Part shown: positions 6,001 through 9,000 of the stretch, piece after piece
How positions within the stretch are numbered: position 1 is the first letter of the stretch
How the letters are laid out: every line of letters starts with the position of its first letter
Source: a plasmid
Sequence record: NZ_CP025492.2
Length of the DNA: 64,000 nt
Reading direction: 5' to 3' (one strand)
Program-made: the position numbers

Positions 6001-9000
6001 TAGAGATAAGAGTCAGCTACCTCCCTTTCCTTTCTAATTCATTTATGAATTTTTACGATCAGTTCCAATAAAAGATCAACTTCGGAAAATAGATGCTTCG
6101 TTTGTTCTGTTCTTTTTCAAGGTATATTTCTTTTATGGGGGATATGCCTTTACTCTTTCTTCAATTGTTTTCTCAAATAGATCCGATCATGTCCTTCTAG
6201 GTATTTGTTAATTGTTCCTAAATGCTGATAGCCTTGTTTTAAATAAAACCCTTCTGCCTGAAAAGAAAAAGTATCTAATGTTGATGCTGGAATCCCTCGT
6301 TTAATTGCTTCGACTTCAACGTTGCGTAATATCTCAGCACCAATACCAAGACCACGGTATTCTTCATTAACCCAGAGGACATCAACGTATATTGAGCTTT
6401 TATGAGCATATACAATAGCACCGCCAATAATAGTACCTTCGTTATCTTTCACATAGATTGAGTAACGCTCTGGTTTGGTTCCCGTAAAAGGAGCATTAAA
6501 ATTTACTATCCCATCACGAATAATTTTATCTTGCTGTTCTAGTAGCTTGGGGTCTATAACAAGCTCTAGTTGGTAATTTGCGGCTTGATTCATGAGTTAT
6601 ATCTTCTAAAATTAGTTTGAATACAATAAATCATCGATAACTTCCATAGTAATTTCGGGTAGTTTTTGCGTTTGATCAATACTCTCTTGAATGGTTATAA
6701 GCGCTTTTTTAATGTCATCAGGTAACATCTCAGATGGTGCATTGTCGCCTGGCCAAGAAGCATCTCGAGTCGCTTTATCTGGCCAACGAGAATAGGCAAG
6801 CCACATACCATCGTTAGTTTTATGCAGGCAAGAACCTAACGCTCCGCGATATTGCACAAAATAGGAAGCGACCTGATGCCAGGCCTTTTGATACTCCATC
6901 TCAAGCCCAGGCTTAATAAAGGCTCGGTAAATAACAGCAAAACATTTTTTTGAAAGTCGTTTAAATTGTTCTAGTGCTTCTTCAGGTGTTAAATCTTGGT
7001 TCCCTAAAACCTCTTCTGCTTTGAATATGTTTATCCTTTTGGGAATTGAAAACTGGGAAGTAAAGTACATCTGATCAAGGCCTATTCCAAAAGCACAATG
7101 CTTATAACCGAGAACACGAAAGTAATTAATTGGTTGCTGGTTCTTATTAGCTAAGACGTAGTTTCTGAATTTGGGATTATAAAACCCATAAGTCATGTAA
7201 TAATGAATACCTTGGCTTTCAAGATAGTGAACGATGTGAACCAAATTTTGGTGCAGTTTTTCAGGTGAATAAAGTTCAGTATACATCCCAGCTTTTTCAA
7301 ACGTTGAGTGCTCATTCTCTGGATAAGGAGGATTCAGCGCCACAAAATCACCAGGTGTCGCGATCGAAATCACGTCCATAAAATCACCACTTCTGAATGA
7401 AACTTGATTTACATTAAGAAGGTTAGATACTCGGTCAATCTCACACAAGAACATTTCCAACGACAAATTTGCATGTTCAAGAAATCGATTGGCGTTTTTT
7501 CCTTCAAATAATTCACCTTCGCGATAGATAATATTCAGTTCTTTATCATAAAAAAGAATTCCTCCCCATGAATGATTGATGATAAAGGGGAGCAATAATG
7601 GTTTTTCCTCATCAGTTGTCTGGTTGTAATTCTCAATCACTTTAAGGAAAAAATCTTTCTTCGATAGGGAAACATCATATTTTTCTATTAACGCAGCATA
7701 AGAGGTTTTAACAAGCGTAGGATTGTCTCTAATTAATTGAAGTATATTAATCAGAACTTTATTGCTGTCATTGACAATATATTCTTCTGCAAGGCCAACC
7801 TCCATTGCAGCCAAGCTCCAAGAAGCAGAACCTGAAAAAGGCTCAATAGCTTTCTTGTATTTTTGGCCTTTATTATTCGCCAATAATACAGAGAAATGTT
7901 CATTCAACCAGCTGGTATCAGGGGACATATGTCCTGTTAAATCTGGAAGAGTGAGGTACCTATTTCCGAGGTAGTGGAGTGGTCCCCCATGATTTTGATT
8001 TAATTGAATAGTATTTGGGCTCATAATAACCACTATGCAGTAAATATAACTATGAAGCGGCACATCTTAACATGAAACAAACAATTTTTTTATTCTCTTG
8101 AATAAAATGACTATTGACCCTCACGTTGCGTGATAGCTTAGAATCATCAATTAAGGAGATGATGCTTATGAAATATTATCAAATTAAAGAAATCAGCCAA
8201 ATGACCTCTCTTTCAATTCGGTCATTGCAATACTATGATGAAGTAGGTTTGTTAAAACCAACAAAGCGCTCTGATTCTGGCTATCGTTTGTATTCTGAAA
8301 CTGATTTACTTATTTTACAACAAATTATCACCTTAAAATTCCTTGGATTCTCTTTATCTACTATTAAAGAAATCCTTGCGAATCCAAACTTTAATCTGGC
8401 CGCATCAATGAGCCTTCAAGCCCGCGAATTGAGTGAAAAGGCTAATAAAATAAATGAAGCAGCCTCTTTGTTAACGTATATTGCCAGTCAACTGGAAATA
8501 AACCAGCCAATCAATTGGCAAAGTAGTGCAAAAATTATTGAAATATTGGAGTTAAATACTATGAGCGATGCTGTATTAAAAAAATATCAATCCGTTAATG
8601 AATCAGAGTTAGGTAAAAAATCAGACTATGATTCCACCTATAATCCCAATCGACTCTATCCTATTCCCAGAGCAGGTAAGCGACAAGAAATTGGCATTGA
8701 TCCTGCCCCCATCCTCCTTTTGTGGGTTTTGACTGCTGGAATCATTATGAAGTCTCTTGGCTCAACGAAAAAGGTAAACCGATGGTTGGGATTGGTGAAA
8801 TTTTTTATGATTGTAACTCGCCCAAACTCATCGAATCCAAGTCATTAAAACTTTATTTTAATTCATTCAATAATACCAAAATAAAAAGTATTAGTGAGTT
8901 AGAAAATACAATAAAAAATGATTTAGAAGCACGTATAGAAGCTCCAGTTTCAGTTAAAATTTATCTTTTGGAACAAGCAAAACACTACGCTGTATCACAA

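Follow-up and report, generated by a model that had tools for sequence, protein, structure and literature searches.

The methyltransferase-ABM fusion gene analysed here lies on a Legionella plasmid (NZ_CP025492.2; the window, meaning the whole stretch of DNA that was analysed, comprises 64,000 nucleotides), and we read its product, with a probability of about 0.45, as a small-molecule N-methyltransferase/ABM enzyme with a tailoring or detoxifying function. What points towards small-molecule chemistry is the island in which the gene is embedded, together with the fusions and adjacencies of its relatives; neighbours, fusion partners and nearest relatives all suggest that a small molecule is modified rather than that DNA is marked. 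To our knowledge, all D12/Dam-class enzymes described so far act as DNA methyltransferases, and automatic annotation gives every member this name; a small-molecule role, if true, would be unprecedented for the class. A counterargument is that the whole Dam architecture appears to be kept in the structural model, including the DNA-binding helical insert and hairpin of Dam, and the acidity of the domain and its gene neighbourhood provide indirect evidence on the substrate. The argument draws on the following features:

6612-8024, minus strand: methyltransferase-ABM fusion CDS, 470 amino acids plus stop codon, with the start set by homologues
6951-7991, minus strand: D12/Dam-fold SAM-dependent amino-methyltransferase domain (residues ~12-358), supported by PF02086, Foldseek and conservation
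7821-7844, minus strand: motif I, the SAM-binding loop EPFSGSAS (residues 61-68), in which P62, G65 and A67 are invariant
7323-7334, minus strand: catalytic motif IV, NPPY (residues 231-234), followed by the invariant P235 and E236
6630-6947, minus strand: ABM-fold domain, ferredoxin-like beta-alpha-beta-beta-alpha-beta (residues ~360-465)
6150-6593, minus strand: GNAT acetyltransferase gene, beginning 18 nt past the stop codon of the fusion gene
8043-8070, minus strand: sigma-70-like promoter candidate TTAAGA-16-TATATT 5' of the fusion gene, on weak evidence
8114-8144, plus strand: MerR-type promoter TTGACC-19 nt-TAGAAT, with the palindrome TCACG-N3-CGTGA in its spacer

The mechanically defined open reading frame spans 6612-8063 on the minus strand, with 483 codons counted from a GTG at 8063. 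As the homologues begin at an internal methionine (ATG at 8024), the CDS is likely to be 6612-8024, with this ATG as the probable start. The intergenic sequence around the sigma-70-like promoter candidate is kept between species, and the GNAT gene is probably co-transcribed with the fusion gene. The MerR-type promoter points away from the fusion gene, towards the divergent merR-queF gene that it drives; identical copies occur in 11 other loci, and it is missing from the conjugative plasmid pLPP. The idea that MerR-QueF is a dedicated regulator or partner of the methyltransferase is weakened by this orientation, the promoter facing merR-queF itself, and by pLPP, on which no merR-queF lies between the APH and methyltransferase genes.

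Assemblies of at least 10 Legionella species and plasmids of the pLPP type carry the fusion at 85-93% identity; pLPP, on which the protein is annotated "DNA adenine methylase", is also found in L. hackeliae. A sequencing or assembly artefact can be dismissed, since the identical 470-residue layout is seen in at least 10 species and on 8 plasmids. The fusion is kept in two downstream contexts, with a GNAT gene here and an SDR gene in L. santicrucis; in an unfused arrangement the ABM gene lies 2.6 kb from the methyltransferase in the same locus, and the GNAT gene is kept downstream of fused and unfused methyltransferases alike. One L. pneumophila locus (L004), in which no gene had been called, was considered as a possible pseudogene, but its reading frame proved intact. 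Literature searches turned up nothing on the fusion protein, on D12 enzymes with substrates other than DNA, or on the cargo island of pLPP; the fusion is undescribed in the literature searched. The preliminary description had not recognised a Dam-ABM protein as a standard architecture.

The D12-class motifs noted there are borne out: PF02086 (D12 class MTase) matches residues 39-288 with E=9e-13 (48.9 bits, the cut-off being 22), and both EPFSGSAS and NPPY are invariant or nearly so across 62 homologues. Within these sequences P232 and Y234 of the NPPY motif are invariant, as are G65 and D86, the latter being the acidic residue after strand 2. The Dam subfamily model TIGR00571 (NCBIfam) reaches 49.3 bits, below its cut-off of 114.85. 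Further elements of the domain are the N-terminal motif GGPLHYLGNR, a helical insert bearing a hairpin, and a helix at the C-terminal end. In an AlphaFold2 model of the fusion protein (pLDDT 90.7, pTM 0.83) the alpha-type fold is present, with the helical target-recognition insert and hairpin placed between the SAM and catalytic regions, and Foldseek relates this domain to DpnM, EcoDam and T4Dam with E-values of 1e-13 to 1e-11 (TM 0.65-0.77 relative to the targets 2dpm, 2g1p and 1yfl). The sequence and model predict a SAM-dependent amino-methyltransferase with the Dam (D12) fold that is competent for catalysis.

What sets the domain apart from Dam is its charge and its hairpin. Across the 62 members it is acidic, with a median pI of 5.7 and a net charge of -9, versus ~8.8 and +5 for EcoDam. 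The hairpin residues that we take to contact DNA bases and phosphates are R124, N126, N132, P134 and R137 in EcoDam, and R116, N118 and R130 in T4Dam. In an alignment that is of low confidence in this region, the five EcoDam positions fall on F158, D160, I166, L172 and K176, with basic character only at K176; Dam/T4Dam R124/R116 would be changed to F158, N126/N118 to D160, and N132 to I166. In the same low-confidence hairpin alignment W153 corresponds to the intercalating Y119 of EcoDam and K176 to R137, two correspondences that weigh against the small-molecule reading.

Of the two halves, for which the preliminary description had proposed separate profile searches, the methyltransferase gave a clear profile match and the C-terminal part a weaker one. 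On the window copy PF03992 remains below its cut-off of 23.1 bits (13.7-16.9 bits, E=0.007-0.07), yet the orthologue P0007 exceeds it with 24.4 bits, and among 48 homologues of the domain, 33 reach E<=0.01 (best 5e-8); some sources name stand-alone homologues 'ABM domain-containing'. DSSP assignment of the model gives beta-alpha-beta-beta-alpha-beta for residues 361-462, and Foldseek retrieves at least 15 ABM structures, Rv0793, SnoaB and LsrG among them, with E ~5e-5 and a probability of 1.0. Although sub-threshold by HMM, the predicted ABM fold of this ~110-residue domain, which had been described as ABM-like, is thus clear from structure prediction and homologues. No solved structure related to this subfamily was detectable by sequence-profile search. 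The subfamily is very conserved and consists mostly of stand-alone proteins of 107-115 residues, and elsewhere it is fused to chloramphenicol-phosphotransferase-like kinases, alpha/beta-hydrolase-GNAT, class I SAM methyltransferase or FMO; judged by these protein sequences, the ABM domain is a mobile module. A conserved EVE-ABM pair, which would favour a nucleic-acid role, was also considered: the pair is seen in Coxiella, but BLAST found no EVE domain in 80 metagenomic ABM loci.

The fusion gene belongs to an island spanning 27 kb or more that is made up of acetyl-, phospho- and nucleotidyl-transferases and ligand-sensing regulators. It holds at least six GNATs, five APH-type kinases and Pol-beta/AadA-type nucleotidyltransferases, accompanied by an SDR, cupins, an S66 peptidase, a glyoxalase/bleomycin-resistance-type protein, a GyrI-like protein and regulators of the MerR/WYL/LuxR type; no nuclease is among its genes. 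A GNAT-APH protein of the island matches Mph and APH(2'')/APH(3') structures remotely. An identity of the island APHs with the Legionella spectinomycin kinase APH(9)-Ia was not upheld, with no PDB match for the two stand-alone APHs and only the remote match for GNAT-APH. The window also contains an ATP-grasp gene (22735-24069), which bears no similarity to the ATP-grasp family that fuses to the methyltransferase.

It is among the more distant relatives that this fusing family occurs. Five proteins (P0059, P0061, P0062, P0065 and P0073) carry an ATP-grasp ligase fused to the methyltransferase, and in another genome a member of the same ATP-grasp family (41-42% identity over 410 residues) is encoded separately, 8 nt downstream of the methyltransferase; fused in one case and adjacent in the other, the two constitute a Rosetta-stone link at the sequence level. 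The upstream end of P0077 is overlapped by a different ATP-grasp gene. GFO/IDH/MocA oxidoreductases are fused to the methyltransferase in P0067 and P0206, with P0067 lying within an operon of SAH hydrolase, MTHFR, MetE and MetK, and P0054 adjoins an NRPS, a CmlA-like hydroxylase, a KAS III and an MFS transporter. When 1.84 billion representatives were searched exhaustively with a profile, a tier just outside the core family emerged that has the family-specific motifs, and all 11 large proteins scanned from this tier have a D12-A-PCP-TE(-NACHT)-TPR architecture. A homologue search seeded with the NRPS-linked domain yielded a single match, and some homologue contexts (toxin-antitoxin genes, Fpg, MCP) were uninformative. 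The preliminary description had advised looking for conserved partners in homologue neighbourhoods; these did reveal the retained GNAT and the ATP-grasp, oxidoreductase and NRPS links, and no nuclease was seen in 10 other homologue contexts.

In the mechanism that we propose, the protein would be a bifunctional enzyme that modifies small molecules and travels as cargo of pLPP-type Legionella conjugative plasmids. The NPPY pocket, which in the Dam (D12) fold normally takes a flipped-out adenine, would instead accommodate a planar -NH2 group, exocyclic or amide, of a free ligand, which would then be N-methylated; purine-like, aryl-amine or carboxamide-bearing toxins or metabolites are candidates. 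The ABM domain, probably dimerising, might act on or hold the same compound, as a putative cofactor-free oxygenase/isomerase or ligand-binding module, and the downstream GNAT could add a further modification. The methyltransferase-ABM protein and the GNAT would thereby form part of the island's toolkit for chemical defence (xenobiotic or antibiotic detoxification) or tailoring. The analysis establishes the domain identities, the intact motifs, the conserved fusion, the location on a plasmid, the gene context and the partners to which relatives are fused or adjacent; a substrate other than DNA, the action of both domains on one compound, and the chemical class of this compound are what we infer from it.

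The main competing explanation, less likely in our view yet a serious rival, follows the database annotation: an orphan, sequence-specific N6-adenine DNA methyltransferase of a conjugative plasmid, which would protect the plasmid on entering new hosts or tune gene expression, with the ABM domain as an accessory dimerisation or regulatory module. It would account well for the fold and motif order shared with Dam, DpnM and T4Dam, for the intact SAM and NPPY motifs, and for an insert and hairpin that are not only retained but highly conserved, as for a fixed recognition site. It also fits a plasmid-borne gene without cognate nuclease, weak matches to models of type II/orphan and phage DNA methyltransferases from PADLOC and PHROG, and the presence in Legionella genomes of 6mA motifs whose enzymes are not all assigned: L. 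longbeachae shows GATC methylation and has two unassigned GATC-type methyltransferase homologues (PMC8987031), and L. pneumophila DNA is partially sensitive to DpnI (PMC4184833). Against it stand the score of 49 bits where the Dam subfamily model demands 115, the acidic domain with Dam DNA contacts turned into F, D and I, and relatives that are joined to, or neighbour, ATP-grasp, oxidoreductase and NRPS modules and a SAM-cycle operon, associations without DNA-methyltransferase precedent. The family is moreover patchy, plasmid-borne and multi-copy within genomes, and a single genome can contain several paralogues that agree in the conserved 'recognition' residues, as do L. steelei and the MAG OZ257143.1 with two each; in L. 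pneumophila a ~90%-identical and a 61%-identical form (P0024) are both known, the two occurring in different assemblies. This distribution, the acidity and the lack of Dam DNA-contact residues speak against the epigenetic regulator suggested earlier. The proposed anti-restriction function fares no better. On pLPP the fusion gene lies at 112.2-113.6 kb in GNAT/APH cargo, tens of kilobases from the tra operon (18.7-42.7 kb), near which the plasmid already has an antirestriction gene (46.3 kb), and a placement in the leading region, beside oriT and the early-transfer genes ssb, psiB and ard, was not found there. The gene is also practically missing from viral contigs, 2.9 million of which yielded a single weak relative with 24% identity, so that a phage-derived or anti-restriction gene finds no support. 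The absence of an adjacent restriction gene holds true, as Pfam searches of neighbours within +/-10 kb and beyond found no nuclease or defence partner within ~10 kb on either strand; PADLOC gave generic MTase matches only and marked no neighbour as a defence partner, arguing against the restriction-modification, defence or modification system that had been considered. Should DNA be the substrate after all, the protein would be an unusual acidic, ABM-fused orphan DNA methyltransferase spread by conjugation, and an obvious candidate for the unassigned 6mA motifs of Legionella methylomes.

Methylation of another macromolecule, be it an rRNA or tRNA adenine, with Erm-like target protection fitting a resistance island, or a protein Gln/Asn amide as in the case of PrmC, appears improbable to us. 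NPPY enzymes do methylate RNA adenines (RlmJ/RlmF) and glutamine amides (PrmC/HemK), the island abounds in homologues of enzymes that modify aminoglycosides and macrolides, including the GNAT-APH protein with its matches to Mph and APH(2'') structures, and there is a weak PrmC match around the NPPY region (E=0.14). However, the acidic surface counts against RNA as much as against DNA, we know of no D12-class enzyme that acts on RNA or protein, and fusions with ATP-grasp, A-PCP-TE and sugar-type oxidoreductase domains suit small molecules better. Very unlikely, in our estimate, is a role as a Legionella effector, secreted or translocated, with a host molecule (DNA, protein or metabolite) as its methylation target. 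The gene is indeed accessory throughout the genus, ankyrin-repeat proteins are encoded nearby (19797-21611 in the window; locus L027), and, on inspection, the N-termini of some ABM fusion proteins (P0079, P0080, P0082) resemble signal peptides and the C-terminus of the fusion protein looks acidic/hydrophobic (EITMEVIDDLLYSN). Yet the same ABM C-terminus is kept in non-Legionella bacteria devoid of Dot/Icm, the enzymes encoded in the same operon are of a cytoplasmic detoxification type and stand under MerR/MarR-type regulators, and no effector annotation or literature was found.

Extending the small-molecule reading from the single enzyme to its family is a bolder step, which we take a shade more tentatively. 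There may be a clade of Dam-fold (D12) methyltransferases that works off DNA, N-methylating small molecules or carrier-bound intermediates in partnership with enzymes that form amides (ATP-grasp, adenylation-PCP-TE) and, in the Legionella case, with a fused ABM domain; this would make the plasmid enzyme a new mobile type of xenobiotic- or antibiotic-modifying enzyme (resistance or tailoring) that hundreds of genomes wrongly label 'DNA adenine methylase'. The enzyme may well belong to such a non-DNA methyltransferase clade, a placement that the preliminary description had set against its own interpretation. If so, the chemistry of the class would be widened, a widespread annotation corrected, and a new type of N-methyltransferase added to natural-product and resistance biology. 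As the gene resides on plasmids that move between Legionella species, in a large, unstudied resistance-like island, it bears on the chemical stresses met in biofilms and amoebae.

Plasmid-borne orphan DNA methyltransferases are common, and the anti-restriction and leading-region enzymes of conjugative plasmids resemble the fusion gene in lacking a cognate nuclease and in spreading between species with their plasmid; the fusion gene differs in lying in a cargo island and not beside oriT/tra, with the pLPP antirestriction gene being a separate one. With the ABM family PF03992 (ActVA-Orf6, SnoaB, Rv0793, YgiN and LsrG-type dimeric alpha+beta barrels) the C-terminal domain has in common the ferredoxin-like fold of ~100 residues, at Foldseek TM values of 0.7-0.8 relative to the targets. 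Its subfamily is distinguished by an invariant signature of its own (GSxLH, YSRWP, R..W) and by a mean column identity of 64% across Legionella, Coxiella, Chlamydiae and Verrucomicrobia, and the plasmid copy by its covalent link to a methyltransferase.

For the methyltransferase domain, the closest sequences beyond the core family (E 1e-37 to 1e-23) are the metagenomic D12-A-PCP-TE(-NACHT)-TPR megaproteins (P0227, P0230, P0232-P0236, P0238, P0241, P0244 and P0258), which share the motifs PLxYFGNR, FxGSxS..AM, F(I/L)INH, DPPYP and YG with it; they differ in placing the methyltransferase N-terminal to an adenylation-thiolation-thioesterase module and STAND/TPR, and they have no ABM domain. A functional analogy, though from other class I methyltransferase subfamilies and not from D12, is offered by two NPPY enzymes, PrmC/HemK, which methylates a glutamine amide, and PapM, which methylates 4-aminophenylalanine in the pristinamycin pathway: no sequence kinship was found outside the motif region, but they illustrate, by analogy, that methylation of a planar amide or aryl-amine nitrogen other than in DNA is within reach of an NPPY pocket, as proposed here. 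Dam, DpnM (DpnIIA) and T4 Dam are D12-class, alpha-type N6-adenine DNA methyltransferases, and every characterised PF02086 member that we know of methylates DNA. The Legionella domain shares their motif order (a YxGxK/R-type N-terminal motif, SAM loop, helical insert with hairpin, and (D/N)PPY), at only 13-19% identity. In contrast to them, the Legionella enzyme is ~80 residues longer, acidic and altered at the DNA-contact residues, carries a C-terminal ABM domain in a small-molecule-enzyme context, and has relatives that are fused to ATP-grasp, oxidoreductase and NRPS-type modules.

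The ORF at 6612-8063 proved to be a real gene. Its 13 initial codons (from GTG) have no counterpart in homologues, all of which start with the methionine whose codon lies at 8024; the product is therefore most likely a protein of 470 residues, whose numbering we use here. Its N-terminal part contains a D12-class methyltransferase domain (aa 39-288; Pfam, E=9e-13, over the curated cut-off) and scores 49 bits with the NCBIfam Dam subfamily model, far under the cut-off of 115 bits. Motifs I and IV are invariant or nearly so in 62 homologues, with identities down to 39%.

Features of the fusion gene and its orthologue on pLPP, the conjugative plasmid of L. 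pneumophila Paris
6612-8063, minus: fusion ORF, confirmed as real
aa 61-68, minus: motif I, EPFSGSAS (sequence and homologue conservation)
aa 231-234, minus: motif IV, NPPY (sequence and homologue conservation)
NC_006365.1, 112228-113640: fusion orthologue on pLPP, 90.9% identity, product 'DNA adenine methylase'

In a confident AlphaFold2 model (pLDDT 90.7, pTM 0.83; input of 109 sequences), the N-terminal domain matches DpnM, E. coli Dam and T4 Dam (Foldseek against the PDB, E 1e-13 to 1e-11); by fold and motifs it is a member of PF02086 that lies outside the Dam subfamily model. For the C-terminal domain, profile searches with the window copy gave a sub-threshold ABM match (Pfam, aa 362-418, E=0.07, or E=0.007 when the C-terminal part was searched by itself), yet 33 of 48 homologues of this domain match the ABM model (best E 5e-8), and aa ~360-465 match many ABM-family structures, among them Rv0793, SnoaB and LsrG (Foldseek against the PDB, E ~5e-5, probability 1.0). 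The C-terminal domain has the ABM fold, and these homologue, model and Foldseek matches confirm, together with the D12 domain and its motifs, the Dam-fold-ABM fusion proposed in the preliminary description.

This ABM subfamily, for which no solved structure was detectable by sequence, is tight (409 matches, mean column identity 64%); its invariant residues include F5, Y9, E18, G40-S41, L43-H44, W51, Y54-S55-R56-W57-P58, R63 and W67. It occurs mostly as a stand-alone protein of 107-115 aa in Legionella, Coxiella burnetii, Chlamydiae, Babeliae-like and Verrucomicrobia genomes, in heterogeneous genomic contexts. Because it is also fused to several further enzymes, namely chloramphenicol-phosphotransferase-like P-loop kinases (homologues P0079, P0080, P0083), an alpha/beta-hydrolase-GNAT (P0082), a class I SAM methyltransferase (P0084) and a flavin monooxygenase (FMO; P0085), the domain behaves as a mobile accessory module of small-molecule-modifying enzymes. 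By inspection, the N-termini of P0079, P0080 and P0082 are hydrophobic and signal-peptide-like, an oddity in enzymes that depend on ATP or acetyl-CoA. In Coxiella burnetii, a stand-alone ABM gene lies 5 nt 3' of an EVE-domain gene (locus L038, 3538-4342). EVE-ABM as a general pair was rejected, since BLAST found an EVE gene near ABM in none of 80 metagenomic loci; the pairing therefore seems lineage-specific.

The same architecture, aligned over residues 1-470 at 85-93% identity, is present in two MAGs and eight Legionella species (L. saoudiensis, L. steelei, L. maceachernii, L. maioricensis, L. quateirensis, L. santicrucis, L. bononiensis and L. steigerwaltii), and the fusion is also found on plasmids near-identical to pLPP, one of them from L. 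hackeliae; its sequence, annotated as DNA adenine methylase, has been public since the deposition of pLPP. Positions 1-25000 and 35001-51316 of the window share ~92% DNA identity with pLPP and the L. hackeliae plasmid, and part of 35-60 kb is matched at at least 99% identity by six plasmid records. Judged by the ~92% identity to pLPP, the whole window is a pLPP-type plasmid or an integrated relative, which accounts for the 85-97% identity of the entire gene block across species. Most members of the methyltransferase family (~360 aa) lack the ABM domain. At L. pneumophila subsp. fraseri-type loci the methyltransferase is unfused (373-376 aa); 2.6 kb downstream there is a separate ABM gene (115 aa, 82% identity with the fused domain), followed by an SDR. 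In L. santicrucis the fused gene is directly followed by an SDR 89% identical to that of the fraseri-type loci, and in the window by a GNAT 86% identical to the one after the unfused methyltransferase elsewhere. That the fusion is kept in two downstream arrangements argues for selection on the linkage itself.

The GNAT of the window lies 18 nt after the fusion gene on the same strand, and the fusion gene belongs to a region, at least 27 kb long, that contains small-molecule-type enzymes and regulators.

Genes and features around the fusion gene
9-608, plus: GNAT-SAM-methyltransferase
621-1514, plus: S66 LD-carboxypeptidase
1565-1951, plus: cupin
1957-2814, plus: GNAT-cupin
2816-4302, plus: two GNATs
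4295-5308, plus: APH
5321-6037, plus: SDR
6119-6150: hairpin terminator candidate
about 8159-9417, plus: MerR-QueF
9425-10375: APH
10372-11907, minus: GNAT-APH
12034-12813: shikimate-kinase-like/LuxR
12816-15636, minus: AlkD-like, GyrI-like/Cass2, EVE, glyoxalase/bleomycin-resistance-type and HTH-WYL

The rest of the region contains another APH, Pol-beta-type nucleotidyltransferases, an AadA-like protein, an ATP-grasp, an ankyrin protein and a two-component system, and pLPP additionally carries AlaX, YbaK, LysE and more GNAT and APH genes. The region amounts to a cargo island: its enzymes are resistance-like and modify small molecules, and its regulators respond to ligands. As the preliminary description had noted, no restriction gene is adjacent: near the fusion gene there is neither a nuclease nor a known defence partner, and PADLOC gave generic methyltransferase matches only, which speaks against the suggested role in a defence or modification system. 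The proposed anti-restriction function is not supported either, since the fusion gene of pLPP lies at a great distance from both the F-type tra operon (18.7-42.7 kb) and the antirestriction gene that this plasmid already has (46.3 kb), and a search of 2.9 million viral contigs yielded just one weak relative (24% identity).

The nine tightly packed plus-strand genes at 9-6037 form an operon convergent with the methyltransferase-ABM-GNAT operon; the family of its S66 LD-carboxypeptidase includes MccF, the microcin C immunity peptidase. Its SDR has an in-frame 43-codon deletion relative to 281-aa orthologues, with loss of the TGxxxGxG NAD(P)-binding motif, and merR-queF is split near 8705, where a C-run has gained 2 bp (CCTGCCCCCATCC vs CCTG--CCCATCC); together, these lesions suggest that the island is decaying in the window strain. 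The gene of the segment 8114-9417 (plus) joins a MerR HTH to a complete bimodular QueF (preQ0 nitrile reductase); it is intact in other loci (415-433 aa) and missing at the equivalent position of pLPP. A typical MerR-type promoter (8114-8144; TTGACC-19 nt-TAGAAT, spacer palindrome TCACG-N3-CGTGA), identical in 11 other loci, drives merR-queF itself, which suggests that the product senses a nitrile or a 7-deazapurine-like ligand and is autoregulated in the manner of TipAL. The five genes at 12816-15636, an operon-like run also present on pLPP, include functions in DNA-alkylation repair (AlkD-like), effector binding (Cass2/GyrI-like) and YafY-type regulation (HTH-WYL), and look like a genotoxin-resistance module. 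The GNAT-APH is bifunctional, with an architecture that recalls AAC(6')-APH(2''); its kinase part is remotely like macrolide 2'-phosphotransferases and APH(2'')/APH(3') structures (E ~1e-8). On pLPP, an ATP-grasp - ThiS/MoaD - ThiF - YcaO - TfuA cluster (locus L037, NC_006365.1 8469-14379) resembles a small-molecule pathway of the thioamide or RiPP type.

The core family of the methyltransferase (85 matches in a word-indexed search) comes mainly from Legionellales and metagenomes, and its more distant members are recurrently linked to small-molecule enzymes. Five proteins of ~785 aa are methyltransferase-ATP-grasp fusions (P0059, P0061, P0062, P0065, P0073), and in MAG OZ257143.1 (L027, 9962-13052) a separate ATP-grasp gene of the same family (41-42% identity over 410 aa) lies 8 nt 3' of the methyltransferase, a Rosetta-stone relationship. 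At its upstream end, P0077 (40% identity) overlaps with an ATP-grasp gene (DcsG_N / GSH-S_ATP; L009, 5892-8119) that is different from that of the five fusions. P0067 and P0206 carry a fused GFO/IDH/MocA oxidoreductase, and the P0067 operon (L031, 3407-11267), with SAH hydrolase, PfkB kinase, MTHFR, split MetE and MetK, is a complete SAM-regeneration operon. The genes flanking P0054 encode an NRPS, a CmlA-like hydroxylase, KAS III and an MFS transporter, and P0024 (L. pneumophila, 61% identical) has GNATs, beta-lactamase-family proteins and a nucleotidyltransferase for neighbours. When 1.84 billion cluster representatives were searched exhaustively with an HMM, 1413 relatives came up at E<=1e-3, of which 134 reached E<=1e-10 and 36 reached E<=1e-30. 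In the tier just beyond the core family, alignments cover the whole domain and share the family-specific motifs PLxYFGNR, FxGSxS..AM, F(I/L)INH and DPPYP; canonical Dam-like sequences score much weaker. Many proteins of this tier have 900-2800 aa, and all 11 large ones scanned, from metagenomes, combine D12 methyltransferase - adenylation - PCP - thioesterase - (NACHT) - TPR (P0227, P0230, P0232-P0236, P0238, P0241, P0244, P0258), a family for which we found no published description.

Weighing the evidence for and against DNA as the substrate, with all functional evidence contextual, we put the probability that the enzyme N-methylates a small, possibly carrier-bound, molecule at roughly 45%. 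That it is instead an orphan DNA methyltransferase is less probable, but a serious rival: its predicted fold is that of Dam, with helical insert and hairpin kept, W153 aligns with the intercalating Y119 of Dam and K176 with R137, orphan methyltransferases are common on plasmids, the enzymes for 6mA motifs of Legionella genomes are in part still to be assigned, and DpnI partly cuts L. pneumophila DNA. Against DNA, the domain is acidic family-wide (median pI 5.7, net charge -9), as opposed to ~8.8 and +5 for E. coli Dam; in a weak alignment, F158, D160 and I166 occupy base- and phosphate-contact positions of Dam and T4Dam, and E and L stand opposite the T4Dam Lys-Arg pair after the hairpin (including R130). 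The 'recognition' region, moreover, is nearly invariant, yet several paralogues share one genome, and the family's fusion and operon partners have no known precedent among DNA methyltransferases. RNA or protein as the methylation target is improbable and a translocated effector highly so; the remaining probability falls to an unknown function. Our literature search found nothing on this protein, on non-DNA D12 enzymes or on the pLPP-type plasmid island.

For small-molecule N-methylation, a mechanism can be outlined. Both domains are intact, with conserved SAM and NPPY motifs, and the fusion is conserved, forms an operon with a GNAT and is carried on plasmids in a small-molecule context. A free ligand would present a planar amino group, exocyclic or amide, to the NPPY pocket, to be methylated there with SAM, the ABM domain could oxidise, rearrange or merely bind the same compound, by analogy with cofactor-free ABM oxygenases and isomerases, and might dimerise the enzyme, and the GNAT would make a further modification. 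The clade's repeated pairing with carboxylate-activating, amide-forming enzymes (ATP-grasp, adenylation) suggests that the methyl acceptor is an amide or amine nitrogen adjoining such a linkage. PrmC, which methylates a glutamine amide, and PapM, which methylates an aryl-amine, are functional precedents for this chemistry, but not relatives of the fusion methyltransferase.
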